From the NCBI GenBank assembly GCA_964453785.1, contig CAYVRK010000007.1:57511-121510 (forward strand): a stretch of 64,000 nt of DNA. The letters are read 5' to 3'. The translations under genes and the position numbers were made by a program. This document shows positions 1-14,662 of this stretch, in pieces. The stretch's first letter is position 1. Each line of letters begins with the position of its first letter. The stretch comes from an uncultured Bacteroides sp. Lineage in GTDB: Bacteria; Bacteroidota; Bacteroidia; Bacteroidales; GCA-2748055. Below the pieces are notes generated by a model, which saw nothing but the letters and a program-made list of their open reading frames with translations, ran no database searches and was not told the origin of the DNA.

Positions 1-372
1 ATCGTTTCCCGGAAATTTGGCGAGAAAATTGGTGTCCAGATGGCCCCTACCTTCGTCTATTACAATGCGGTCCCTGAAGGATACCGCAATGATAACTACT
101 CCCTGAATTTTGGAGGACGTTTCCAGGTGTTTGGCTTTCATTCCATCATATTTGAATATGACCAGCCACTGGTTCAGCCCACTGGGGATAATGCCAAAAC
201 CATCTACCCCAACATGGCACTGGGCATAGAAATCGGAACCAGTACACACGCATTCAGGATATTCGCATCCAATTACAACGCCATCGTCAAGAACAGGAGC
301 GTCGCTTTCAACGACAGAGACCCATTTGAAGGAGATTTCCAGTTCGGATTTAACATCTCGATCAGGTTTTAA
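1..372 (+). CDS. outer-membrane beta-barrel protein, C-terminal part (5' end lies outside window)
   Basis: Frame 1 is open from base 1 (IVSRKFGEKIGVQ precedes the tracked Met at 40). Alternating beta-strand-like pattern (FRIFASNY, FQFGFNISIRF) and a terminal Phe typical of OM barrels. The stop lies 2 nt before the next ATG. Confidence 0.55.
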   Translation: MVSRKFGEKIGVQMAPTFVYYNAVPEGYRNDNYSLNFGGRFQVFGFHSIIFEYDQPLVQPTGDNAKTIYPNMALGIEIGTSTHAFRIFASNYNAIVKNRSVAFNDRDPFEGDFQFGFNISIRF

Positions 373-374
373 CC

Positions 375-1340
375 ATGAGAAACCCAACAATCGCATTATC
401 CGGAATACTGCTGACTTGTGCATTTTCGCTTTGCGCCCAGTCAGTTGATACCACAAAGATCAAACCCGCCTTCCGCGAGGTCAATGAGTATGTGGATGAC
501 AATGAAAACTGTCTCAGATGCCATGGTGAGTTGAAGTATATCATCGAAAACCAGGGCAGGGTCATGACCGAACTGATGTGTCCTGACAGGGTCATCAATA
601 GGGATGCTTACTATTCGGGGGTCCATAAGGCATTTTCATGTTTGGATTGCCATTCGTATGAATTTGAGGTTTTCCCTCATTCGGTGGAAGCCAGGGTAAC
701 TGAGATGCTCTTGTGCATGGATTGTCATGGATACGACGAGACCTTTTCAAAATACCATTTTGAAGACATCGAAATGGAGTTTGCTGAAAGTACCCACAAC
801 ATGCCTGAATTCACTTGCTGGAAATGTCATGATCCCCATTCCTATAAGGCGTTCATGAGAAATGCCGATGATATCGAAGAAGCCGTGCTTTATGACAACA
901 GCATGTGCCTGAGCTGCCATGCGGATTTCAGTCGCTTTATGTTGCTGACCGACAGGAAGGAGATCAATGTGGTAGAGAGCCATAGCTGGTTGCCTAACCA
1001 GGTGGCCCATTTCAGAGCCGTCCGTTGCATTGAGTGTCATACGGAGATCAACGATTCCATCCTGATCGCTCATAAAATCCTGCCAAAATCAGAAGCGGTT
1101 AGAAACTGTACGGAATGTCATGCCAAAGACTCCAGGCTCATGCATACCCTCTACAAATTCGAGAGCCTTGAAAAACGAAAGGTTGGTTTTGTGAACAGCA
1201 TCATGATCAATAACTCCTACGTCATTGGTGCAAACCAAAACGTGCACCTCAACCGCTTAAGTTTGATCGTCTTCGGAATGACCTTACTGGTCATTGGGTT
1301 TCATACCTATTTGAGAATTAAAAAACAGAAAAAAAGCTGA
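375..1340 (+). CDS. heptaheme c-type cytochrome, C-terminally membrane anchored
   Basis: 321 aa with a signal peptide (ILLTCAFSLCAQS). Seven CXXCH motifs: CLRCH, CLDCH, CMDCH, CWKCH, CLSCH, CIECH, CTECH. C-terminal hydrophobic helix LSLIVFGMTLLVIGFHTYL followed by KKQKK. Confidence 0.85.
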   Translation: MRNPTIALSGILLTCAFSLCAQSVDTTKIKPAFREVNEYVDDNENCLRCHGELKYIIENQGRVMTELMCPDRVINRDAYYSGVHKAFSCLDCHSYEFEVFPHSVEARVTEMLLCMDCHGYDETFSKYHFEDIEMEFAESTHNMPEFTCWKCHDPHSYKAFMRNADDIEEAVLYDNSMCLSCHADFSRFMLLTDRKEINVVESHSWLPNQVAHFRAVRCIECHTEINDSILIAHKILPKSEAVRNCTECHAKDSRLMHTLYKFESLEKRKVGFVNSIMINNSYVIGANQNVHLNRLSLIVFGMTLLVIGFHTYLRIKKQKKS

Positions 1341-1341
1341 C

Positions 1342-1965
1342 ATGGCAACTAAAAAAATATATCTCTACCCAATATGGATCCGTCTCTGGCATGTCATCAA
1401 TGCCATGACGTTCCTTTTACTGGTAGCAACCGGGATTTGCCTGCATTATGCCTCTGCTGACAATAGCCTGATCCCTTTTCAGATTTCGGTGGGGATTCAT
1501 AACATTTGTGCCATTGTCCTTTCGGTCAACTATGGTGTTTTTGTCATCGGCAATGTGGTTACAGGAAATGGAAGGTATTACCGGAAGTGGAGAAAAAACC
1601 TTTGGCCCAAACTCTGGAAACAATTCCTTTTCTATGCCGTTGGAATTTTCAAGGGTGAGCCCCATCCCTTCCCCATTACCAAGAAACAAAAGTTCAATCC
1701 ACTGCAGAAAATTTCCTATGTATTTGCCATGTATCTTGGAATGCCTTTGCTGATTATCTCAGGGATTGGGCTCATGTTCCCGGAGAGGATCTCCAATACC
1801 ATATTTAAAATCAGTGGCCTCCTCTTTTATGATGTGCTCCACATCATTGTAGGCTTTGTGCTTTCCCTCTTCCTTTTGATTCATCTCTATACCTGTACTT
1901 TGGGCGATAAACCGGGTACTTTGTTTAAGAGCATGATCAACGGATACCACGAGGAACATGAATAA
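1342..1965 (+). CDS. membrane cytochrome b (FdnI/PhsC/HydC-like diheme b subunit)
   Basis: 207 aa with 4-5 hydrophobic helices carrying conserved His (WHVINAMTF, GIHNICAIV, VLHIIVGF, LLIHLY). No CXXCH. The ATG lies 1 nt after the upstream stop, suggesting translational coupling. Confidence 0.75.
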   Translation: MATKKIYLYPIWIRLWHVINAMTFLLLVATGICLHYASADNSLIPFQISVGIHNICAIVLSVNYGVFVIGNVVTGNGRYYRKWRKNLWPKLWKQFLFYAVGIFKGEPHPFPITKKQKFNPLQKISYVFAMYLGMPLLIISGIGLMFPERISNTIFKISGLLFYDVLHIIVGFVLSLFLLIHLYTCTLGDKPGTLFKSMINGYHEEHE

Positions 1966-2095
1966 GTCCTTTTTTTCAAAGTGACTTATATTCAGACTAG
2001 TTATAAATAGATCCTACAATTGGAGATATGTTAATAGTTGCATATAAAAATCACTATTTTAACGTGCTCTTAACAACCAAGAACCTGATCACTGA

Positions 2096-4894
2096 ATGGG
2101 TCATAAAACCGATATTTCCTCTCGGGCAATAAAATTTCTGGGGCTATTGCTGCTGTCAGCATCCCTTCCACAGGTCTCCCTTTTCTCCCAATCCAATGAG
2201 GATTGCATGATGTGCCATGAGGATATTGAACTGGAAGGCATGTTGCGTGGAAGGAATGTATCCATGTTTGTGGATACCACGGTTTTTGAACGATCAGTCC
2301 ATCACGGCAACAGCTGCCTCTCCTGCCATGCGGATGCCGCAGATGAAGGCTTCCCCCACGCCGATGATCTGAAACCCGTCAACTGTGGCAATTGCCATAC
2401 CCAACAAATGGCAGATAACACCAAGGGTATTCACGGACAGGCACTCCTGTTGAATGATCCCAATGCGCCCAGCTGTAAAGAGTGCCATGGTCACCACGAT
2501 ATCCTGTATTATACCGATCCCAAATCCAGGACCTATAAAATGAACATTCCCATTTTATGCGGGACCTGTCATCGTGAAGGGGAAGTGGTTGCAAGGGCAT
2601 ACAACGTATCCGAACACAATATCGTTGAGAATTATACCCAGGGCATCCATGGAAGGGGCTTATTCGAAGCAGGGCTCATTGTAACAGCAACATGCAATGA
2701 TTGCCATGGCAACCACCTGGTGCTTCCGCATACAAGTCCTAATTCATCCATTTCACCCAACAGGATCGCTGGGACCTGCATGAAGTGCCATACCCGTATT
2801 GAAGAGGCTCACAAGAAGGTCATCAAAGGTGAATTATGGGAAAAGAATCCATCGGTCATCCCCTCCTGCTCACAGTGTCATCCTCCTCATAAAATTGATG
2901 TTCCCCAAATCCAGGCAAGGGTTTCGGATAACAAATGCATGAAGTGCCATAAGGAAGCAGATGTACATAAAATGGTTGACGGTGAACGTGTTTCTCTCCA
3001 GGTGGATGACAATATACTACCCAACTCGGTCCATAAAAATATACAATGCACCAAATGCCATACAGAGGTCACTGATCACCTCCCACGCCCCTGTTCCACC
3101 AACAAACCAGTGGACTGTTCTTCGTGTCACGCCGAAGTTTTTGATAATTATTTTAAAAGTGGCCACGGGCAGGCCCATTATAACAATGTGGAGAATGCCC
3201 CTTATTGTACCGACTGTCACGGTACCCATGCCACCAAATCCAGGTATGACGATACATCACCAGTATACCGGACAGCTATTCCATCGCTTTGTGGAGAGTG
3301 CCATAAGGAGGATGGTAAGGCACCCCGGTCCACTGAGTTGAAAGAGGTGGATGCCTTTGCCGATTATTCCATGAGTGTTCATGGTCAGGGACTCACAAGC
3401 AAGGGACTGACCGTTAGTGCAGTTTGTACAGACTGCCATACCACCCACCTCATGCTGAAGGAATCCAATCCCGAATCATCAGTACACCCTTCCAATGTCC
3501 AGCAAACCTGTGGAAATTGTCACAAAGGGATCCTTGAACAGTACCTGAAGAGTGACCATTCCTTTACCGAAGAGTTTCCAAAAAAGGAGTATCCAACCTG
3601 CGTGAGGTGCCACACTGCTCACGGGATCTCGACTGTGAGTCAGGACAAATTCATGAATGAGGTCACCACCCAGTGCGGATCCTGCCATGAAGAAACTGCA
3701 AAGACTTTTCTGAAAACCTATCATGGCAAAGCGTACCAGCTGGGTTACTACGAAACGGCCCGATGTTCTAATTGTCACGGTTCCCATAACATCTTAAAGG
3801 CTGAGAATCCCGAATCAATGATTGCAGAACAGAATCTTGTCACCACATGCGGAGCATGTCACCCGGGAGCGAACAAACGTTTTACAGGCTATTTAAGTCA
3901 CGCTACCTATAAGGACGATCCCAAATTGCATGTCGCTTATATCTTTATGACTGCCCTGTTGCTGGGTGTATTTTTCTTCTTCGGCATTCACCTGCTCATG
4001 TGGCTTCCGCGTTCAGTTTCAGAAAGGAGAAAGAAAAGAAAAGAGGAACCCAGGGAGATCGGGAACCAATACATCAAACGCTTCTCCCGCAATCAACGGA
4101 TCACCCACGTCTTTGTAATCATCAGTTTCATCCTGCTAGCACTGACCGGAATGATGCTTAAGTTTGCCAATATGGAATGGGCCAAATTTCTGGCAAGACT
4201 CATGGGTGGGGTGCAAAACGCCGGAGTTCTGCACCGTATGGGAGCTGTCATTACATTCGGTTACTTTTCCTTTCACATCCTCAACCTGGTGAGAATGAAG
4301 AGAAGGAAAAGGCTCTCCATGACCAAATTTATTTTCGGGAAGAATTCGCTCTGGTTTAATAAGCAGGATATTCTTGATTTCGTGGCCACCATCAAATGGT
4401 TTGTGGGCAAAGGACCAAGGCCCAATTATGGCAGATGGACCTACTGGGAGAAGTTCGACTACCTGGCTGTTTTCTGGGGGGTAGCCATCATTGGTTTCAG
4501 TGGCCTGATACTATGGTTTCCTGTACTCTTTACAAAGTTCTTTCCCGGCTGGGTGATCAATTTTTCACAGATCATCCACAGTGACGAGGCCCTGTTGGCC
4601 GTTGGTTTCATCTTTACAATTCACTTCTTTAACACCCATTTCCGGCCGGAAGCATTTCCGATGGATACAGTCATATTCACCGGCCATATGCCCCTGGAGC
4701 ATTTCAAACATGAAAGGCCGCGTGAATATCAGGAATTGAAAGATTCAGGAAAGCTGGAAGAAGCCATCGTGGAAAAACACTATTCAAAGGAGAACATGAG
4801 GTTGATCCGGCTCTTCGGATTCCTTGCCCTGGCCATTGGTGTGATCCTGATTGGGTTCATCGTCTTCACCTTCATTTCAGGAGGTGGACACTAG
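2096..4894 (+). CDS. 19-heme c-type cytochrome fused to a six-helix cytochrome-b-like membrane domain
   Basis: 932 aa with a signal peptide. Nineteen CXXCH motifs between residues ~37 and ~590 (CMMCH ... CGACH). Six hydrophobic helices follow, with His-rich helices ITHVFVIISF, VLHRMGAVITFGYFSFH and IIHSDEALLAVGFIFTIHFFNTHF. Confidence 0.85.
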   Translation: MGHKTDISSRAIKFLGLLLLSASLPQVSLFSQSNEDCMMCHEDIELEGMLRGRNVSMFVDTTVFERSVHHGNSCLSCHADAADEGFPHADDLKPVNCGNCHTQQMADNTKGIHGQALLLNDPNAPSCKECHGHHDILYYTDPKSRTYKMNIPILCGTCHREGEVVARAYNVSEHNIVENYTQGIHGRGLFEAGLIVTATCNDCHGNHLVLPHTSPNSSISPNRIAGTCMKCHTRIEEAHKKVIKGELWEKNPSVIPSCSQCHPPHKIDVPQIQARVSDNKCMKCHKEADVHKMVDGERVSLQVDDNILPNSVHKNIQCTKCHTEVTDHLPRPCSTNKPVDCSSCHAEVFDNYFKSGHGQAHYNNVENAPYCTDCHGTHATKSRYDDTSPVYRTAIPSLCGECHKEDGKAPRSTELKEVDAFADYSMSVHGQGLTSKGLTVSAVCTDCHTTHLMLKESNPESSVHPSNVQQTCGNCHKGILEQYLKSDHSFTEEFPKKEYPTCVRCHTAHGISTVSQDKFMNEVTTQCGSCHEETAKTFLKTYHGKAYQLGYYETARCSNCHGSHNILKAENPESMIAEQNLVTTCGACHPGANKRFTGYLSHATYKDDPKLHVAYIFMTALLLGVFFFFGIHLLMWLPRSVSERRKKRKEEPREIGNQYIKRFSRNQRITHVFVIISFILLALTGMMLKFANMEWAKFLARLMGGVQNAGVLHRMGAVITFGYFSFHILNLVRMKRRKRLSMTKFIFGKNSLWFNKQDILDFVATIKWFVGKGPRPNYGRWTYWEKFDYLAVFWGVAIIGFSGLILWFPVLFTKFFPGWVINFSQIIHSDEALLAVGFIFTIHFFNTHFRPEAFPMDTVIFTGHMPLEHFKHERPREYQELKDSGKLEEAIVEKHYSKENMRLIRLFGFLALAIGVILIGFIVFTFISGGGH

Positions 4895-4895
4895 T

Positions 4896-5585
4896 CTATT
4901 GGACCACAGTGGAATTCTCCAGCAGAACTTCGTAGCTGTAGCCGTATCCGAAATCCAGGTTCAAAGCCAGGATGCCTTCAAGGATTACCACTGTGCCCAC
5001 TTCCAATGACTCCATGGAAGTGGCTGTGAGGTCGAATTTGCCTTCAAATTCGGTCCCGTCCTGCAGATGTACCCAGTTTCGCTCCATAATGGCCGGATTA
5101 TACTTGGTGACCTCTCCTTTTACACGAACTGTTTTCCCTTCATAAGCCTCCGGATCAGCATAGATCTCTGCAATTGTAACCGTACCTTCAACCCTTTCCA
5201 CTGCGACCTTAACCTTCTCTTTGGGGGCCATGCTGCCAGGAGTCATCTCCTGTACAGGCATCACTTTGGAATCATCACCCATAAAAAGAGCCTCCACGAA
5301 AAGAACCTCATCAAATGTACGGTCGAGCTCTTTGCTGTAAAAATCCTTCATAAGCATCCCTCCCTGATAATGATAGGTCTCTCCAGGACTGGCCTGCATG
5401 GTGGGTACGGCAATCCAGAATTCAGTTTTCTTACTTTTGACCAGCAGGTAGGTATAATCGCTCACCTGCTCGACTGCCTGTACTTTAACGGTGTTATCAG
5501 TGTTTTCTGCTTTGTTCCCGCAGGAGGATGCAGTGAGTATCAATAAGAGGATGATCAGGTGGTTCAGTTTCGCTTTCATTTTCAT
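4896..5585 (-). CDS. lipoprotein of unknown function with OB-fold-like C-terminal domain
   Basis: 229 aa with a lipobox (LLILTASSC followed by GNK). The segment GKTVRVKGEVTKYNPAIMERNWVHLQDGT resembles periplasmic bacterial OB-fold proteins. The gene abuts the convergent 19-heme gene with a 1-nt gap. Confidence 0.6.
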   Translation of the reverse strand: MKMKAKLNHLIILLLILTASSCGNKAENTDNTVKVQAVEQVSDYTYLLVKSKKTEFWIAVPTMQASPGETYHYQGGMLMKDFYSKELDRTFDEVLFVEALFMGDDSKVMPVQEMTPGSMAPKEKVKVAVERVEGTVTIAEIYADPEAYEGKTVRVKGEVTKYNPAIMERNWVHLQDGTEFEGKFDLTATSMESLEVGTVVILEGILALNLDFGYGYSYEVLLENSTVVQ

Positions 5586-5663
5586 TCAATTTTATAAGTA
5601 CCTTTTTCAAATATATTTTGCGCGAAGATACAACAAACGGGAGAATAGATTGACAATTCTTTT

Positions 5664-7163
5664 CTAATACAGGGCTCTGTGACAATCCGAACAAGCCATC
5701 TCCTTCCACGCCTCCCCAATGTCTACCGGGTGCCTGAAATCCAGAGCGTTATCAATGGTTGTGGATTCATAATTGTCTGGCCCGCCCTGAGCAAGGATTG
5801 TATGGCACAGATTACAATCCCTTGAAATGATGCGTCCATCTTCACTTTGATGATTCCCGTTATGGCATCTGAAGCACCCGTTGAACTCCATGTGGCCAAT
5901 ATGAATCGGATAGGCGTTCCAGTTCACTTTCATTTCAGGAAAGATGTTTTTTGAATATCCTTCAAGCAACCCGTCAATTGTCATTTGGATCAGGTCCTGG
6001 TTTTTTTCATCAATTTCCGGATAAGCAGACTTGTAAAACGCTTCAACGCTCTCCCTGATCTGGACCTTGCCCGAATCCCGGTCCGTAAACTCCTGGTTGA
6101 ACACCTGCATGGCAAGAAATTTCACCTCGGGAAGTTCAGCGGGAATGCTTCCTGCAGCGATCAGGTCGTCGGTAAACTTCTGAGGTGCCTGGTAATTGTG
6201 TGAGGGCCGGTTGTGGCAATCCAGACAGTCCATCTCCCTGATTTCTAAAGTATCAAAAGCTTCGGGACCAACAGTTTCATAGATATCCTGGTAAATTACA
6301 GTGTCCCCGGTAGCCTTATCAATATAGCGTACCCAGGGTATATATTCTCTCTTTTCAGAAGAAGCCAGGTAATCTATTTTAACATCGCTGTGTATATGCC
6401 AATGAATTCCTTCCTGCAAACCCAGGGCACTGCTCTTGGATCCGATTTTCATTTTAAGCTGGATATCCCACTCCGTATTTGCTGAATCGGCCAGATAATT
6501 TCTTTCGTTTCTTAACCGGTAGGAGTAAAATTTCTCCGGCCAGTGGCACTCTTCACAGGTCTCACGTGCTGGTCTCAGGTTATGGATGGGCGTTTTTATG
6601 GGTGTAGGATATTTATGAAAGAGAACAGAATATACCTGGTACATTCCCGACAATTTGCTTTTTACGTACCAGCTTGCTCCGGTCCCCACATGGCATTCCA
6701 CACATGCGACCCGGGAGTGTGCCGACTCCTGATAGGCCACATACTCGGGTTCCATGACCTGGTGACACAGGGTTCCGCAGAACTCGTTTGATTCCGTATA
6801 ATGAAAGGCCTGGTAACTGCCTATTCCGGTTAACATGAGAAAGACAATGGTGACGAAGATAAAGACCGCCACAGCATTCCATTGCCTCGAGTCCCTCAGG
6901 TCAATGACCATCCATCTCCTGGTACCCTCTTCACCTTCGCGCCTGATTCTCTTAGCCCTCCTGGACATACCAACCGGGATCAGAATGAGGCCTATAATCA
7001 AAAATACCGGAAGCACAATATAAGTGATGATTCCCGTATACGAACCCCCCTCATGAAACAACCAATTGGTAAGCATCAAAAAAATAACACTCAGGATGCT
7101 CACGGCTGCAATGATGCTGCCGAGCATTGAAAGCGGATTGTAAAAAGTCTTCGGGAATTTCAT
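5664..7163 (-). CDS. membrane-anchored NapC/NirT-type multiheme cytochrome (ImcH-like)
   Basis: 499 aa with two N-terminal TM helices (LGSIIAAVSILSVIFLMLTNWLF, IITYIVLPVFLIIGLILIPVG) and a third (AVAVFIFVTIVFLMLTGIG). One CX3CH (FCGTLCH) plus six CXXCH: CVECH, CEECH, CLDCH, CFRCH, CNLCH, CSDCH. Confidence 0.8.
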   Translation of the reverse strand: MKFPKTFYNPLSMLGSIIAAVSILSVIFLMLTNWLFHEGGSYTGIITYIVLPVFLIIGLILIPVGMSRRAKRIRREGEEGTRRWMVIDLRDSRQWNAVAVFIFVTIVFLMLTGIGSYQAFHYTESNEFCGTLCHQVMEPEYVAYQESAHSRVACVECHVGTGASWYVKSKLSGMYQVYSVLFHKYPTPIKTPIHNLRPARETCEECHWPEKFYSYRLRNERNYLADSANTEWDIQLKMKIGSKSSALGLQEGIHWHIHSDVKIDYLASSEKREYIPWVRYIDKATGDTVIYQDIYETVGPEAFDTLEIREMDCLDCHNRPSHNYQAPQKFTDDLIAAGSIPAELPEVKFLAMQVFNQEFTDRDSGKVQIRESVEAFYKSAYPEIDEKNQDLIQMTIDGLLEGYSKNIFPEMKVNWNAYPIHIGHMEFNGCFRCHNGNHQSEDGRIISRDCNLCHTILAQGGPDNYESTTIDNALDFRHPVDIGEAWKEMACSDCHRALY

Positions 7164-7363: not shown

Positions 7364-7894
7364 CTAGTTCGCAGCAGGATTAGGATGGGCAATCTTTGCT
7401 GAAAACTCGGCATAATTAAATGCCTTATAGGTTGGGCTCCCTGAATTATGGCAGCTCTTGCATACCTCTTCTGTAGGCAGAATCATTCCTTTTTGCAAAG
7501 CCAATTCCTGGTTTTTCATGATTGAGGCTCCCTTATACATACTTCCCGGACCATGACACGACTCACATGAAACGCCTTCAGACATCACAATTCCGGCCAC
7601 CAGGCTTTTGTCAATATGACCAACTGTGGAGTGGCATTTAACACAGGCCGCATCGGTGGTCGGATCAGCAATTCCCTTTGCAGTGGCAATTTTCTTTGCT
7701 TCATCCGTGGCTAGGGTCTTCATGGCATTGGCATGGGGTCCCTTGAGCCAGACATTATACTGATCACCTGTAGCCGGCTTCATATGGCACATTTTACACT
7801 TTGCTGAACCGATGTATTTGAAATCCTGGGCTTGCAGAAACGTGCCAGCAAAAAAGGCCAGAACAACGAGGAATAATAATTTCTTTGATAACAT
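7364..7894 (-). CDS. periplasmic tetraheme cytochrome c (cytochrome c554-like small multiheme)
   Basis: 176 aa with a signal peptide ending FLQAQ. Four CXXCH: CKMCH, CVKCH, CESCH, CKSCH. The N-terminal pattern YIGSAKCKMCH..W..GPHANA is typical of the c554-type family. Confidence 0.85.
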   Translation of the reverse strand: MLSKKLLFLVVLAFFAGTFLQAQDFKYIGSAKCKMCHMKPATGDQYNVWLKGPHANAMKTLATDEAKKIATAKGIADPTTDAACVKCHSTVGHIDKSLVAGIVMSEGVSCESCHGPGSMYKGASIMKNQELALQKGMILPTEEVCKSCHNSGSPTYKAFNYAEFSAKIAHPNPAAN

Positions 7895-8087: not shown

Positions 8088-9059
8088 TTAGTCAACTACA
8101 TAATCGTAACCCATGATGGAACTTGCACTCCATTTGTGGCTGGACAGATCGCTGTAGATCATTCCATTGGCTCCGAAAAGCAATGTTTTTGCATCGTAGC
8201 CGATTACACGAAGGTAGGCAGCCATGTTGGCACTGGTCTGCCCGGTCCAGCAATAAACAACCACAGCCTTATCGGTGGGAAGGGTTTTCAGATCACCATC
8301 AAGGCTCATGCCCACTTTGGGGGTATATTGCATGGCTCCCGGAATATGCCCGATTTCTGTGTAATCTGCTTCGGCCCAGTAATTGGCAATGTAGTAGCTT
8401 TCCAGGGCTCCGAATACCGTGGCATTGGTAATCTTTGCAGGATCGAATCCTTCTGCAAAAACTTCTTCAATCCGCGCATCCAAAATCTCTTTTCCGGTTT
8501 TAAATCCCGTATTCAATACGGGGAGTTCTCCTTCCGGACCCTTCTCAGTAGCGTCTTTTGTAAATTCTGAGGTATACATACTTTTGGTATTGTTGTTCCA
8601 GCTACCGGCAAAGTCAGTATTCCATGAACACATTCCGAATCCCATGGAATAGGCATTGTCATACCCGGCTAGTCTCAAAAGGCAGGTTGCCCAGGCTGCT
8701 GTCTGGCCGGAATAACATACAATAATGATCTCATCTTTGCTGTCATCGTCAGTTGTGCCTTCAAGATGAGTAAGCACATCTTTGGAAGAAACATTCACAG
8801 CATTCTCGATATGTCCAAGTGCATAATCAGCAGCTGAACGGATATCAATGATGTAGTTGGCTCCCGTGGTATTCAGTGTTTTTACATGCTCTGCGCTTAC
8901 AATGGCAGGCATGGCTGTGGCAGCATAGTTGCCTCCATCGGCTGACTCAAGATACTCCACAAGGACCTGCGCTTCGTTGACATCTTCTTCTTTATTACAA
9001 GATACAGCGAACAAAGCAAGGAACAGGATGGCTACCATCCAGATTTTTGTCATTTTCAT
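8088..9059 (-). CDS. tandem-rhodanese (sulfurtransferase) lipoprotein
   Basis: 323 aa with lipobox LFAVSC followed by NKEEDV. Two rhodanese-like domains, each with a candidate active-site Cys loop (VCYSGQTAAW and YCWTGQTSAN). Confidence 0.8.
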   Translation of the reverse strand: MKMTKIWMVAILFLALFAVSCNKEEDVNEAQVLVEYLESADGGNYAATAMPAIVSAEHVKTLNTTGANYIIDIRSAADYALGHIENAVNVSSKDVLTHLEGTTDDDSKDEIIIVCYSGQTAAWATCLLRLAGYDNAYSMGFGMCSWNTDFAGSWNNNTKSMYTSEFTKDATEKGPEGELPVLNTGFKTGKEILDARIEEVFAEGFDPAKITNATVFGALESYYIANYWAEADYTEIGHIPGAMQYTPKVGMSLDGDLKTLPTDKAVVVYCWTGQTSANMAAYLRVIGYDAKTLLFGANGMIYSDLSSHKWSASSIMGYDYVVD

Positions 9060-9110: not shown

Positions 9111-10478
9111 TTATTTAGTCCATGAAGACGGCAACTTTCCATCTACGGTCATAAATTCGGAAGAAGACAATTCCCAGTCCTCCAGCAAATCAGACTTGAA
9201 AAGGAAAAGATTTCTATTGACCATTGAATCGCCTTCCATGCGGATGTGGCAGTTGAAAGAACATCCTTGTCCTGGTTCAACATGGGTCCGTGAGGTCCAC
9301 TTCAGAATATTATGTGGTGAAGTGTAGTTGTAGATTGGTAATGCATCGAAGTCCGCATATTCATCAACGCCGTACATCTCCCAGTTATCTGGAGCTCCAA
9401 GTGTCCGCCTGACCACTGTAAAATCAGAATTAAATCCATTTTTAACTTCAGGAATGGGATTGATGGCGATTTTAAAATCCATATAAGAAGGGACCCGTGC
9501 ACCCTCGCCGTGCACATGACAGCTTCCACAGTTGTTGTAATCCTGTGAATGGCAAACATAACAGCTGAAATCTCCGTAGTGCATTGAATGGTAGTTATTT
9601 GCAGTTTCGACACCATCATGACAATCCTCACATTCGGGTAGTTCACTGTAGGCGTACCGCTGCTCCACAGGCTGACCGTCTCCGTGAAGTTCATGACCAT
9701 CATGACAACTGAGGCATTCAAATTTCAGTTTTTTCTGATGCACATCGGGCTCGGTACCGGGAGCAACACCCAGGAAGGCATGTCCTCCCCTGGATACATG
9801 ACAGGTCACACATACATTGAGCATATGCGGGGTCTTGTTGAAATTATGCCCCTTGGACAACCCGCCCCCACCGGAAGCCGGGCGAACCACATGGCAATTC
9901 CCGCAGGTACCATGGCAATGTGCACAGTTGTCGTTATAACCCTCAATCTGATGCGCTGGCAGCTGGTCAAAATCCTGGGAACCATTCAGGCCGCTTCTGA
10001 TGGCCACTTTCCTTTTCTGGCCTGTACCATTATGGATGCTTGTGGTAAAATTATCCGCAATGTCCTTGTGGCAGGTTCCACACTTTTCTTCATAATAGAG
10101 TGATGGGTGCTTGATGAAATCGCCTGTATGGGCCAGCTCTTTTTCCCCGGTATTACCTACTCCGTTGTGGCATCCTGTACATCCGACGGAATAGTGCCCT
10201 GAGCTTTTAAAGGATTCATATCCTTCTCCCCCCATATATACCCTGTCATAGGGCTCATAATGGGGAGCCTCTCCGCCACATCCGCCAACAGGAGCATCTG
10301 TATCTGGCGTGTAGACTGCAATCAGCCTTTCGTAATCCGTATGGCATCCTTCGCAGGAATTTGCCTTGACTTCTCCGTTGCCTTTTCCCGGAATGGTATA
10401 ATTGGTACATGCGATGCCGGTAAAAACAAACACCACAAATAACAATAGCAGACCAGATCCAAACTTAATTCCTTTCAT
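9111..10478 (-). CDS. decaheme c-type cytochrome lipoprotein
   Basis: 455 aa with lipobox FTGIAC. Ten CXXCH: CEGCH, CTGCH, CGTCH, CAHCH, CGNCH, CVTCH, CLSCH, CEDCH, CYVCH, CGSCH. One additional CX3CH (CSFNCH) near the C-terminus. Confidence 0.85.
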   Translation of the reverse strand: MKGIKFGSGLLLLFVVFVFTGIACTNYTIPGKGNGEVKANSCEGCHTDYERLIAVYTPDTDAPVGGCGGEAPHYEPYDRVYMGGEGYESFKSSGHYSVGCTGCHNGVGNTGEKELAHTGDFIKHPSLYYEEKCGTCHKDIADNFTTSIHNGTGQKRKVAIRSGLNGSQDFDQLPAHQIEGYNDNCAHCHGTCGNCHVVRPASGGGGLSKGHNFNKTPHMLNVCVTCHVSRGGHAFLGVAPGTEPDVHQKKLKFECLSCHDGHELHGDGQPVEQRYAYSELPECEDCHDGVETANNYHSMHYGDFSCYVCHSQDYNNCGSCHVHGEGARVPSYMDFKIAINPIPEVKNGFNSDFTVVRRTLGAPDNWEMYGVDEYADFDALPIYNYTSPHNILKWTSRTHVEPGQGCSFNCHIRMEGDSMVNRNLFLFKSDLLEDWELSSSEFMTVDGKLPSSWTK

Positions 10479-11484: not shown

Positions 11485-12609
11485 CTACTTTTCCGATAAG
11501 GCTTCAATTGTATTTTCAAGAACAGCTGCTATATAGGCCGGATTGTGAAATCCATGACTCCTGTCTTCCTTGATTGCACTATAGTTAACATGAGCCGCTG
11601 TCAGTGATGTACTGAATACACCAGGCTTCATCAGGTACGCATCGCCACCAGCATCAGAAGGATACATAATTCCTGCATCCACCAGAAGGGTATATAACTG
11701 ATCCAACAGTCCATCGGTTTCTGCCATGACTTCCTCAACTTTATCATCAAGGTTTTCGGCGATACCACCATCCGAATGGCACTCCAGGCAGGATGCAGGC
11801 CAGTTATAGGTCTCACTCCCATGGAATTCCCAGGTCATGGCCATGGAGTGTCCTGTGAGGTCACCAAATCCATCATTCATATGACAGGTAACACATCCAT
11901 TCTCAACTTTTCCCAGAACATGATGACTGGTTGGATAGGCAGTACTTCCCGTGAACTCAAAAAGATCCATTCCCGTAAGTAAATTATACTGTGGACCATG
12001 ATGAACACCAGTGCGGTTCATTGCTGCAGTGATGGTAACTGTCGTTGTGCCAGCGTCAAAATTTGCCCACAATGAATCTACCACAAGGGAAGAAGCTACC
12101 ATTTGGTGACATGAAGCGCACTGATTTCCGGTACCTATATCCACACCCATAGAGCCAGTCGCCGGCTCTGGCATACCTGCATTGGTCAGCCCCCAATCTG
12201 CCTCGGTATAAGTGTCATGAATGTTATGGCATGTGTAACAATTTGGTTGTGTAACATTCGCATAAGGTGTATTACTGGCACCAACCAGATTATCAAGAAA
12301 ACCCTGGCTGGTATGACATCCGGCACAATTGTAAAGTGGCCCAAAGGTCCTGTTTGTATACCCGGAGACATCTCCCGTTGAATGCCCTGAGTTTGCATAT
12401 TGCCTGGACTTTGTGACAATCACTTGATCATCACTATGACATACAGTACAGGTTGCATTGGCATCTATACCATCAATACCATCCGTACCATTTTCACCAT
12501 CGAGGCCAGGAGGCCCTGCCGGACCTTCGCAACTGCTCAGGATAAATGCGCCTGCAAGGAGGATCGCAAAACCACTAAGCAGACTGATCATAGAAATATT
12601 CTTTTTCAT
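11485..12609 (-). CDS. hexaheme c-type cytochrome lipoprotein with N-terminal collagen-like (GXY)7 segment
   Basis: 374 aa with lipobox ILSSC. This is followed directly by E-GPA-GPP-GLD-GEN-GTD-GID-GID. Six CXXCH: CTVCH, CAGCH, CYTCH, CASCH, CVTCH, CLECH. The C-terminal helix contains SHGFHNPAY. Confidence 0.85.
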   Translation of the reverse strand: MKKNISMISLLSGFAILLAGAFILSSCEGPAGPPGLDGENGTDGIDGIDANATCTVCHSDDQVIVTKSRQYANSGHSTGDVSGYTNRTFGPLYNCAGCHTSQGFLDNLVGASNTPYANVTQPNCYTCHNIHDTYTEADWGLTNAGMPEPATGSMGVDIGTGNQCASCHQMVASSLVVDSLWANFDAGTTTVTITAAMNRTGVHHGPQYNLLTGMDLFEFTGSTAYPTSHHVLGKVENGCVTCHMNDGFGDLTGHSMAMTWEFHGSETYNWPASCLECHSDGGIAENLDDKVEEVMAETDGLLDQLYTLLVDAGIMYPSDAGGDAYLMKPGVFSTSLTAAHVNYSAIKEDRSHGFHNPAYIAAVLENTIEALSEK

Positions 12610-12940
12610 AGCTATAAGATTTTGCTTAAAGATATCTGTGCAATTTTACCTGTTCAACTTTTCACAATAGAGATATCCCGATACCGAAACGGCATCACAC
12701 TGACATCCCGTCGACATATATCGATTCATTCACCGTTTCCGCCCCGGAACCATGAGCACAGTTTACCTTATTGCTCTCTCTGCCTGAATGTTATTCTGAT
12801 GGTACCGGAAAAAAATGCAATGGTTAACTTTGACCAAAAACAATCAACGGGTTATAAACATGCGCTGCAGTACGTCATATTTTAACATTTGATTGCCACA
12901 CACCGGTCTTTTTCGGGGCGGTTATTTGAAATACCTTTGC

Positions 12941-14662
12941 ATGAAGCGAATGAAAAAGAATATGAGATATGTTATCATTTTCGGGGTAGTACTCATCTGT
13001 ATTACGTCATGCCGGAAATCCGATACGGTTGTGCGGTTGGCGGTTACCACCGACGTGCACGGGATGATCTTTCCATACGATTTTACAGACCGACATCAGT
13101 CTGATCACTCCCTCTCCCATATATACAATTATGTTACACTGAATCAAAACAGGGAGGACACCCTCTTTTTTCTGCTGGATAACGGCGATTTTCTTCAGGG
13201 GCAACCCACTGTTTATTATTACAACTTCATCGATACGGAGTCGGTGCACTTAGCGGCCCGTGTCATGAATTTCATGGCTTATTCGGCAGGCACAGTGGGC
13301 AACCACGACATTGAAGCAGGGCCGGAAGTATATAACAGGGTCAGGGAAGAGCTGGATTTCCCATGGCTGGCTGCCAACGCCGTGAACCCAGAATCCGGAC
13401 ATCCATACTTTAAGACCTACACCATTCTGAAAGCAAATGGGAGACGCATTGCCGTGTTTGGACTAACTACCCCCGGAATTCCACATTGGCTGCCCAAAAA
13501 CCTGTGGCCGGAGATGGAGTTTCATGACATGGTGGAAACTGCCCGGAAATGGGTGCCGATCCTATTAAAAAAAGAGAAACCCGATCTGCTGGTCGGACTG
13601 TTCCATTCCGGAACGGATGCCAGCTATGGGGGCAATCCGGAACCATATCTCAACGAGAATGCTGTACTGCATGTGGCCGAGGAGGTTCCTGGATTTGATG
13701 TGATTTTTGCGGGGCATGATCACAGGGTTTCCATCCAGTGGATCGTAAATCACAAGGGTGACAGTGTGCTTGTGGTGGACCCGGGAAGCCATGCCAGGTA
13801 TGCCGGCGAGGTAACCATCACATTCGGGCCCAAAGGAACCAGGCATATTTCAGCACAGAATGTGCCTATGGCGGAATATGGACCCTCGCCCGGGTTTGAA
13901 AAGGCATTTGCAATGGAGCGAGAAGCGCTTACCCGGTACCTGGGGGATACCATCACATGGCTTTCTGAAACAATGGATGGAGTTGATGCACTTTTCGGCC
14001 CGTCGGCCATGATGTCACTGATACACCAGGTTCAGCTTGAACTATCAGGAGCCGACCTCTCATTCACCGCACCACTTACCCTGACCGCGAAACTGGATAA
14101 AGGGCCGCTTCTTGTATCGGATATGTTTAAACTCTACCGTTTTGAGAACATGCTGTATACCATGGAGCTATCCGGAAAAGAGGTGGACGGGTTTCTTGAG
14201 CATGCAGCCGGCCTCTGGTTCAACACCATGAGCTCTCCAGGGGATCACCTTTTGCAGTTTAAAAGTGATACACCCGGACGGTTGAATCATCCCTATTATA
14301 ACTTCTCTTCTGCAGCCGGAATCGACTATTGGGTGGATGTGACCAAGCCTCCCGGGGAACGGGTGAATATCATTGGATTCTCCAACGGAAACAGTTTCAA
14401 TCCGGAAGAGAAATACCTTGTGGCTATCAATTCCTACAGGGGGAATGGCGGAGGGGGCCATCTGACCAGCGGTGCCGGAATTCCTGCAGGGGATCTCGCC
14501 GCCCGGATTCGATGGTCCACCGACGTCGATCTCCGCTATTACCTGATGCAATATCTTGCCAACCAGGATACCCTGGATCTGCCGTCATTGAACAACTGGA
14601 AATGCGTCCCTGCTAAATGGGTCTCAGGGGCCTCCGCAGCGGACCGTAAATACTTCCACTGA
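12941..14662 (+). CDS. bifunctional metallophosphatase/5'-nucleotidase (UshA-like) lipoprotein
   Basis: Calcineurin-like motifs TTDVHG, DNGDFLQG and GNHD, plus a C-terminal 5'-nucleotidase domain. Lipoprotein signal VLICITSC. The start is moved from the tracked 12893 to the ATG at 12941; 12950 or 12962 are also possible. Confidence 0.85.
   Translation: MKRMKKNMRYVIIFGVVLICITSCRKSDTVVRLAVTTDVHGMIFPYDFTDRHQSDHSLSHIYNYVTLNQNREDTLFFLLDNGDFLQGQPTVYYYNFIDTESVHLAARVMNFMAYSAGTVGNHDIEAGPEVYNRVREELDFPWLAANAVNPESGHPYFKTYTILKANGRRIAVFGLTTPGIPHWLPKNLWPEMEFHDMVETARKWVPILLKKEKPDLLVGLFHSGTDASYGGNPEPYLNENAVLHVAEEVPGFDVIFAGHDHRVSIQWIVNHKGDSVLVVDPGSHARYAGEVTITFGPKGTRHISAQNVPMAEYGPSPGFEKAFAMEREALTRYLGDTITWLSETMDGVDALFGPSAMMSLIHQVQLELSGADLSFTAPLTLTAKLDKGPLLVSDMFKLYRFENMLYTMELSGKEVDGFLEHAAGLWFNTMSSPGDHLLQFKSDTPGRLNHPYYNFSSAAGIDYWVDVTKPPGERVNIIGFSNGNSFNPEEKYLVAINSYRGNGGGGHLTSGAGIPAGDLAARIRWSTDVDLRYYLMQYLANQDTLDLPSLNNWKCVPAKWVSGASAADRKYFH

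Follow-up and report, generated by a model that had tools for sequence, protein, structure and literature searches.

A conserved Bacteroidales operon joins a small DUF5777 beta-barrel to CbcBA-like cytochromes and points to a putative outer-membrane redox module

CbcBA of Geobacter sulfurreducens (Cbc5; GSU0593-GSU0594) is a low-potential menaquinol:cytochrome c oxidoreductase. Its CbcA subunit is a seven-haem cytochrome whose C-terminal membrane anchor supplies a His, and CbcB is a four-helix dihaem cytochrome b with three conserved His, usually annotated as thiosulfate-reductase-like; clusters homologous to CbcBA have been stated to occur in Bacteroidetes (bioRxiv 10.1101/2021.04.15.440034). 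At the outer membrane, the arrangement of one haem beside a small porin is known from Cyc2, an iron oxidase found in neutrophilic and acidophilic iron oxidisers, in which a monohaem cytochrome and a porin are fused and whose substrate is proposed to enter the pore. Strand numbers given in the literature are 16 for the Cyc2 barrel and 26 for MtrB-type conduits. Here we consider a 64,000-nt stretch of DNA from an uncultured Bacteroides sp. (assembly GCA_964453785.1, contig CAYVRK010000007.1, positions 57,511 to 121,510; the whole stretch is called the window below), which begins inside a gene for an outer-membrane barrel of the DUF5777 family, followed by genes for a heptahaem cytochrome c and a cytochrome b. 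The three belong to an operon conserved in Bacteroidales, of which they form the distal part and which encodes a small monohaem lipoprotein, here called lipoc, the barrel, a CbcA-like and a CbcB-like protein.

Frame 1 is open from base 1 of the window to a TAA stop at 370-372, the barrel gene being truncated by the window edge and the ATG at position 40 being internal. An open reading frame (ORF) of 321 codons extends from the ATG at 375 to a TGA at 1338-1340, and another one, of 207 codons, from the ATG at 1342 to 1965, leaving 2 nt between the barrel stop and the heptahaem start and 1 nt between the heptahaem stop and the cytochrome b start. This confirms the coordinates and gaps of a preliminary description of the region, made from its sequence, which had proposed one tightly packed unit. 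Moreover, the spacing is retained in relatives: among 32 of them with alignments beginning at residue 1, the first gap is 2–5 nt in 23 and the second is 1 nt in 22, so that the tight packing is conserved and not an accident. For the window genome, the 5' half of the barrel gene and lipoc were taken from orthologues, in particular locus L003 (contig JAZDPG010000117.1), whose barrel is 96% identical to the window fragment at the protein level.

The linkage was followed from both of its ends, each scan covering the 80 closest loci, and the link is therefore shown within this clade. From the barrel side (one genome per species, 80 Bacteroidota loci), the heptahaem gene directly follows the barrel in 68 out of 70 Bacteroidales loci, with barrels 47–96% identical, and is itself followed by the cytochrome b gene. 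From the cytochrome side (metagenomes searched with a heptahaem alignment, 80 loci at 48–77% identity), the barrel is immediately upstream in 60 of the 61 loci with enough DNA, lipoc is found further upstream in 37 of 39, and a cytochrome b homologue is downstream of the heptahaem gene in all 69 testable loci. The adjacency is thus strong and reciprocal, and the unit proposed earlier is retained across the clade. A survey with hidden Markov models found lipoc adjoining the barrel in approximately 80 of 84 testable loci, Maribacter included. Upstream of lipoc, on the opposite strand, relatives encode a Crp/FNR-type regulator (cNMP-binding/HTH_Crp_2).

The 123-residue barrel fragment in the window matches the Pfam family DUF5777 (PF19089, “membrane bound beta barrel domain”) over profile positions 126–247 of 247 with E 4e-31, its score of 108.5 bits against a cut-off of 23.1 placing it in the family, and it ends with FGFNISIRF. 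The L003 orthologue, P0022, named “DUF5777 family beta-barrel protein” by NCBI, has 296 aa and a signal peptide and matches the profile over its full length (1–247 of 247, 213 bits). Full-length orthologues are generally of about this size, with a signal peptide and the conserved N-terminal barrel segment PPFETLTLIDNQTT. When 1.84 billion representatives were searched with the family profile, 1,434 clusters at 50% identity were obtained, nearly all of 275–320 aa. One protein (P0163, 615 aa) contains two complete DUF5777 barrels in tandem in one polypeptide. Truncated barrel matches were also considered as a possible assembly-breaking repeat, and this was rejected, as they are fragments on short contigs, a scaffold gap (L001) and long-read frameshifts (L002).

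An AlphaFold model of P0022, based on a 40-sequence alignment, has 12 strands (predicted local distance difference test, pLDDT, 72; predicted template modelling score, pTM, 0.66), and its top Foldseek matches in PDB are the 12-strand barrels FapF, COG4313, LpxR, Tsx, KdgM and NanC, with the autotransporters EstA and AaaA also among the matches. An independent model of a distant fused relative has 12 strands as well (pLDDT 88, pTM 0.69) and template modelling scores (TM-scores) of 0.68–0.80 to KdgM and NanC, VhGalP being another of its best structural matches. The signal peptide, the C-terminal RF, the 12-strand models and the Foldseek matches together predict a secreted, closed transmembrane beta-barrel. 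At the modelled size it is far too small to house or thread a multihaem cytochrome; the preliminary description had considered a cytochrome-threading porin of more than 20 strands, and the full barrel recovered from orthologues falls instead into the small class that it had set against threading. By strand alternation, six conserved Arg, one Lys, three Glu and three Asp are predicted to face the lumen. Two His, in QHRF and THxF[R/Q], are invariant family-wide (P0022 residues 58 and 256; in the window, fragment residue 83, bases 247-249). Their possible role as ligands of a haem b inside the barrel was dropped, as both are predicted to be lipid-facing and are located at opposite barrel ends.

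In L003, lipoc is a 118-aa lipoprotein encoded directly upstream of the barrel, with one CXXCH, a lipobox, and a Pro-rich linker of about 20 residues after the lipid-modified Cys. It carries the motifs [FY]xxD[IV]QPIFxxxCxxCH and, at the C-terminus, WIxxGAxNN, and weakly matches the PccH, PSCyt1 and Cytochrome_CBB3 models. In an alignment of lipoc proteins (L003 9104-9460, L074 9123-9503, L083 7537-7947, and others), most keep MP(P/L)G, which probably provides a Met axial ligand, as in PSCyt1. The lipoc proteins of Bacteroidales linked to CbcAB have GTH(D/G)GRAT in place of this region, suggesting that the ligation has changed to His/His and that the potential is lower. The Flavobacteriia versions have acidic residues just after the Cys; those of Bacteroidales have no obvious acidic export signal there.

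The association of the barrel with cytochromes c extends to covalent fusion. P0254, longer than the usual DUF5777 protein, has a class I cytochrome c fused to the barrel N-terminus, and approximately 68 protein clusters, e.g., in Lutibacter, are fusions of this type, 40–64% identical to P0254, with the cytochrome domain followed by a linker of about 35 aa and the C-terminal 12-strand barrel. A lipoc-like gene comes after the fused gene in all three of the fused loci examined. In L083, the gene at 5457-6245, immediately upstream of the fused one, encodes a protein with a Reeler domain and, at its C-terminus, a sorting domain for type IX secretion; Reeler domains accompany a cytochrome b561 domain in eukaryotic ferric reductases of the FRRS1/SDR2 type. 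Among five distant DUF5777 loci (30–34% identical), three have lipoc adjacent to the barrel or within approximately 1.5 kb. Distant DUF5777 genes of this range also adjoin genes for proteins resembling YceI (PF04264, an isoprenoid/quinone-binding fold): L078 8962-9507, L079 7461-8024, L080 10417-10986 and L081 8943-9479, of which the first three are confirmed by Pfam and the fourth looks similar. A tRNA_anti-like OB-fold membrane protein is encoded nearby in L078 and L079. Because of the conserved synteny, the adjacency of lipoc and the fusions, DUF5777 is not a generic outer-membrane protein found in random contexts.

The inner-membrane partner varies. Besides CbcAB, the lipoc-barrel pair is joined to a CbcL-like gene alone in L018, where a 19-haem CbcL-like gene follows it directly, and to a module comprising NrfC/NrfD-like proteins and a 6-haem lipoprotein in Maribacter. 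In the latter (L072-76, barrels 38–40% identical; L074 is from Maribacter arenosus CAU 1321), CbcAB is absent, and lipoc and the barrel have the 6-haem lipoprotein cytochrome on one side and genes for a class I cytochrome c and for the NrfC-like and NrfD-like proteins on the other. In L023, the barrel gene is succeeded by genes for two cytochromes, one of class I and one a 6-haem lipoprotein. Remnants are seen as well: in L039 (10459-10657), the last ~35 heptahaem codons and the last ~25 cytochrome b codons remain between the barrel and the CbcL-like gene, and in L019 (10388-11362) both genes are partly missing and possibly are remnants only; in these two loci cbcAB apparently has been lost, with the lipoc-barrel pair and the CbcL-like gene retained. 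The conserved core is thus the barrel and a small cytochrome c, attached to at least three unrelated quinol-dehydrogenase modules.

The heptahaem protein has exactly seven CXXCH motifs, a signal-peptide-like N-terminus (MRNPTIALSGILLTCAFSLCAQ, followed by S), and a single C-terminal hydrophobic helix with the basic tail KKQKKS, in agreement with the signal and membrane helix noted earlier. Seven CXXCH motifs are present in 58 of 59 homologues, and a His of the C-terminal helix is conserved in all intact ones. The 207-aa protein belongs to the cytochromes b of PF01292 (E 4.5e-24) and scores 189 bits with the NCBIfam model of PhsC, the cytochrome b of thiosulfate reductase, below its cut-off of 204; it has four hydrophobic segments, and His17, His53, His167 and His181 are conserved among 57 homologues. 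Searches of PDB sequences with both proteins yielded no useful relatives. By architecture and published description, the pair is CbcBA-like, an architecture already known, and of a quinol-dehydrogenase type; a quinol dehydrogenase-like pair had been supposed in the preliminary description.

Features annotated in the first 12.6 kb of the window, and one gene beside this region, are listed in Table 1. Most relatives likewise have a CbcL-like gene behind that for cytochrome b. Scans of the 130-nt gap that precedes the CbcL-like gene of the window (1966-2095) for sigma-70 promoters, terminators and the Bacteroidetes –7 motif TAnnTTTG found no promoter or terminator, and this gene may belong to the same transcript. 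The architecture of ImcH and its occurrence in Bacteroidota have been described (bioRxiv 10.1101/2023.05.03.539133). A second Crp regulator is also encoded in this region.

Table 1. Genes of the barrel operon and of the adjacent cytochrome island in the window.
Feature	Position	Strand	Evidence and remarks
3' part of DUF5777 barrel gene (last 123 codons and stop)	1..372	+	PF19089 match; 96% identity to L003 orthologue P0022
Heptahaem cytochrome c, CbcA-like, 321 aa	375..1340	+	ORF, CXXCH count, conserved anchor-helix His
CbcB-like, probably dihaem cytochrome b (HydC/FdnI/PhsC type), 207 aa	1342..1965	+	PF01292, His conservation
CbcL-like fusion, 932 aa: 19-haem periplasmic cytochrome c and C-terminal cytochrome b membrane domain	2096..4894	+	19 CXXCH; PF01292 at residues 597-746; multihaem domains
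Conserved lipoprotein, 229 aa, convergent with the CbcL-like gene	4896..5585	-	No Pfam/NCBIfam family; same position in most relatives
ImcH-like NapC/NirT-family membrane cytochrome, 499 aa, N-terminal membrane helices	5664..7163	-	PF03264; 6 CXXCH and 1 CXXXCH
Secreted tetrahaem cytochrome c554-like, 176 aa, candidate periplasmic carrier	7364..7894	-	PF13435, E 7.5e-17; 4 CXXCH; conserved in relatives
Double-rhodanese lipoprotein	8088-9059	-	Pfam Rhodanese, E 3e-26
Lipoprotein cytochrome with 10-11 haems	9111-10478	-	10 CXXCH and 1 CXXXCH, lipobox
6-haem lipoprotein cytochrome, collagen-like Gly-X-Y linker	11485..12609	-	Motif count, architecture
5'-nucleotidase/metallophosphoesterase (fold family of SoxB), beside the cytochrome island	12893-14662	+	

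The 6-haem lipoprotein of the island resembles Maribacter L074 7836-8978 and L023 10944-11993 in architecture and N-terminal sequence, as judged by unaligned comparison, and in such proteins a collagen-like Gly-X-Y/GIDG linker begins straight after the lipid-modified Cys; such proteins recur close to the lipoc and DUF5777 genes of both Bacteroidales and Maribacter, where they possibly are a surface-exposed or long-reach partner. The rhodanese lipoprotein, the metallophosphoesterase and the PhsC-like cytochrome b hint at sulfur compounds as substrates. Among the scanned genes of the first 12.6 kb, which include the CbcL-like, ImcH-like, c554-like and multihaem lipoprotein genes, no large barrel and no further barrel of any kind was found. 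In one Maribacter metagenome-assembled genome (L075 53-2934), a multihaem cytochrome fragment, a 527-aa protein resembling outer-membrane proteins and ending with IIQRF, and a homologue of the 229-aa lipoprotein from the window are encoded just upstream of the 6-haem/lipoc/barrel cluster; the 527-aa protein and the multihaem cytochrome may be a genuine larger porin-cytochrome pair. A larger barrel of this kind as the real conduit was discarded, as the 527-aa gene has no homologue in the window or in the other loci.

We suggest the following scheme. CbcAB would oxidise menaquinol at the inner membrane and pass the electrons to periplasmic cytochromes. The barrel and lipoc would form a cytochrome-at-a-pore module of the outer membrane, a functional analogue of the fused cytochrome-porin Cyc2, with the haem placed at the mouth of a narrow, polar, KdgM-like pore, where it would exchange electrons with a small diffusible acceptor or donor entering the pore; candidates for this solute are chelated iron, sulfur compounds and quinone-like shuttles. 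No multihaem wire would be threaded through the membrane: such a wire is excluded, since the modelled lumen of 12 strands is too small for a folded haem domain, and the distance between haems at the two mouths would be too great for direct transfer. Of the porin-cytochrome conduit envisaged in the preliminary description, the link to electron transport stands, by synteny, lipoc and the fusions, and the threading does not. Taken as a whole, comprising the operon, CbcAB and a Cyc2-like barrel-lipoc pore module, this is our preferred but tentative reading, at somewhat below even probability.

Several points weigh against it. The contact of the barrel with lipoc and their joint function are deduced from genes and models, with lipoc and the 5' half of the barrel gene lying outside the window and supplied by orthologues. 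The lumen of 12 strands, approximately 10 Å wide, cannot hold a folded haem domain, and one haem at one mouth cannot bridge the membrane, so that the scheme requires a hypothetical diffusing substrate. Metal respiration is not known in the aerobes that carry the fused and Flavobacteriia versions, and the fused genes, in the loci examined, have no respiratory genes beside them. The rhodanese and the b subunit resembling PhsC hint that the chemistry is that of sulfur and not of metals. The invariant, apparently lipid-facing His pair at opposite barrel ends is accounted for by no model, and the likeness to GSU0593/GSU0594 is drawn from descriptions and not from sequence comparison.

The alternative that survives best, which we still consider unlikely, is that the barrel is a plain substrate porin, a specific channel of the KdgM/NanC type importing into the periplasm a soluble acceptor or donor, which lipoc and other cytochromes would then process, the barrel itself having no share in electron transfer and forming no complex with lipoc. 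The best structural matches are indeed the specific porins KdgM, NanC and VhGalP, the predicted lumen is polar, with its six conserved Arg and one conserved Lys, and the rhodanese and PhsC-like cytochrome b of the island would suit anionic sulfur substrates; but the covalent fusion of cytochrome c to the barrel in approximately 68 clusters is hard to explain without contact, as is the near-universal adjacency of lipoc despite differing respiratory partners.

Quite unlikely, in our view, is a device for lipoprotein display or anchoring, where the barrel holds or exports its partner cytochrome and the surface haem domain serves as a terminal reductase. In one variant, the Pro-rich linker of lipoc is threaded through the lumen, in the manner of RcsF with OmpA/C/F; in another, the fused cytochrome is an autotransporter-like passenger. 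The strict pairing of the lipoc and barrel genes agrees with this idea, as do the order of domains in the fusions (passenger, linker of about 35 aa, C-terminal 12-strand barrel), the matches to the polypeptide transporter FapF and to EstA and AaaA, the ~20-residue linker itself, and the acidic residues after the Cys in Flavobacteriia. However, holo-cytochrome c folds with its haem in the periplasm, and its passage through a 12-strand pore is mechanistically difficult; a surface haem would still need an electron path across the membrane, and in Bacteroidales the Cys of lipoc is not followed by any obvious acidic export signal.

We regard as improbable an outer-membrane enzyme or lipid-handling barrel, with an indirect cytochrome link, e.g., through co-regulation under anoxia, where the invariant, lipid-facing His would make up a catalytic or binding site at the membrane interface, comparable to those of OMPLA, PagL or LpxR. 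H58 and H256 are predicted to face lipid near strand ends, the fold matches include LpxR and COG4313, a channel for hydrophobic substrates, and YceI (PF04264) neighbours are confirmed by Pfam in L078-L080, with a similar-looking one in L081, all of which would suit such a role; it leaves unexplained both the cytochrome fusions and the 2–5-nt operon coupling to a quinol dehydrogenase, which persists to 47% identity, and no catalytic Ser or Asn partner was identified. Finally, a classical porin-cytochrome conduit of the MtrAB/Pcc type, with a multihaem cytochrome inserted through the barrel, is very improbable in spite of the barrel gene being in a tight operon with multihaem cytochromes and of the multihaem lipoproteins of the island, since both models have 12 strands compared to 26 in MtrB-type barrels and 16 in Cyc2, the heptahaem protein has an inner-membrane anchor, and, as already noted in the preliminary description for a decahaem insert, no soluble partner with 8–10 haems is encoded beside the barrel, the neighbours being a monohaem lipoprotein and the membrane-anchored heptahaem protein.

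The evidence, therefore, points to an undescribed minimal redox module of the outer membrane rather than to a classical cytochrome-threading porin. In the literature searched, which left most subscription journals outside, we found nothing on DUF5777 or on a barrel linked to cbcBA in Bacteroidetes, and the only mention of cbcBA in Bacteroidetes found was one sentence in the CbcBA preprint (bioRxiv 10.1101/2021.04.15.440034). Bacteroidota hold homologues of the Geobacter inner-membrane electron-export cytochromes CbcBA, CbcL and ImcH. To our knowledge, no outer-membrane electron route is known in this phylum. Gene order and gene fusions now tie DUF5777, a family of approximately 1,400 clusters with function unknown, to c-type cytochromes, with a further link to cbcAB in one large clade, and the barrel with lipoc is a concrete, testable candidate for the missing outer-membrane step.

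In its widest form, which we think possible but rather unlikely, the proposal would be that DUF5777 and lipoc are a hitherto unrecognised, minimal module for electron exchange in the outer membrane of Bacteroidota, which, as a split or fused 12-strand counterpart of Cyc2, can plug into CbcAB, CbcL-like or NrfCD-like dehydrogenases, with a fused or separate class I cytochrome c added in some lineages. In anaerobic Bacteroidales, it would supply the step at the outer membrane that is missing from extracellular electron transfer. If true, small cytochrome-porins would be of two kinds, Cyc2 and this one with its unrelated and smaller barrel, and the gene pair would mark electron exchange between cells and their surroundings in sediments, in digesters and among marine Flavobacteriia. 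Should the barrel be merely a substrate porin or an anchoring device, DUF5777 still receives its first functional context.

Compared to known systems, the inner-membrane part is the most familiar. The c/b pair shares with Geobacter CbcBA a seven-haem c subunit with a His-bearing C-terminal helix, followed by what is probably a four-helix “thiosulfate-reductase-like” dihaem b subunit, the genes being tightly coupled in the order c, b. It differs in having four conserved His in the b subunit rather than three, in its regulator, which is of the Crp/FNR type in Bacteroidales relatives and the sigma-54 regulator BccR in Geobacter, with no BccR-like neighbour here, and in the genes upstream, lipoc and the DUF5777 barrel in Bacteroidales compared to two uncharacterised hypothetical genes and a response regulator in Geobacter; GSU0597 is described in the literature merely as a hypothetical protein. 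The CbcL-like protein has the same architecture as Geobacter CbcL, and its 19 haems are about twice the nine reported for the latter.

The outer-membrane part combines features of several systems. With MtrAB/PioAB/MtoAB and Geobacter Pcc it shares an outer-membrane barrel encoded together with c-type cytochromes in an island of the extracellular-electron-transfer type, but their barrels have ~20–26 strands around a multihaem cytochrome, compared to 12 strands and a one-haem partner here. The monomeric 12-strand fold is common with KdgM/NanC, FapF and COG4313 (TM-scores up to 0.80, normalised to the target), at sequence identities of 7–13%, and none of these is associated with cytochromes. A small lipoprotein paired with its cognate barrel is known for RcsF-OmpA/C/F and LptE-LptD, and the fusions have the layout of type Va autotransporters, an N-terminal passenger and a C-terminal 12-strand barrel; there is no sequence relationship to any of them, and the cargo here is a haem protein. 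Cyc2 likewise combines one c-type haem with a small outer-membrane barrel, and, as in Cyc2, the cytochrome is N-terminal (presumably periplasmic) in the fused DUF5777 relatives. Compared by description, Cyc2 is a single polypeptide with a minimal N-terminal haem peptide and a 16-strand, OprO/OprP-like porin, whereas DUF5777 has 12 strands in a KdgM-like fold, and its cytochrome is a separate lipoprotein, encoded by its own gene, in the window lineage; in the fusions it is a complete class I domain, with a second, lipoc-like cytochrome encoded beside it.

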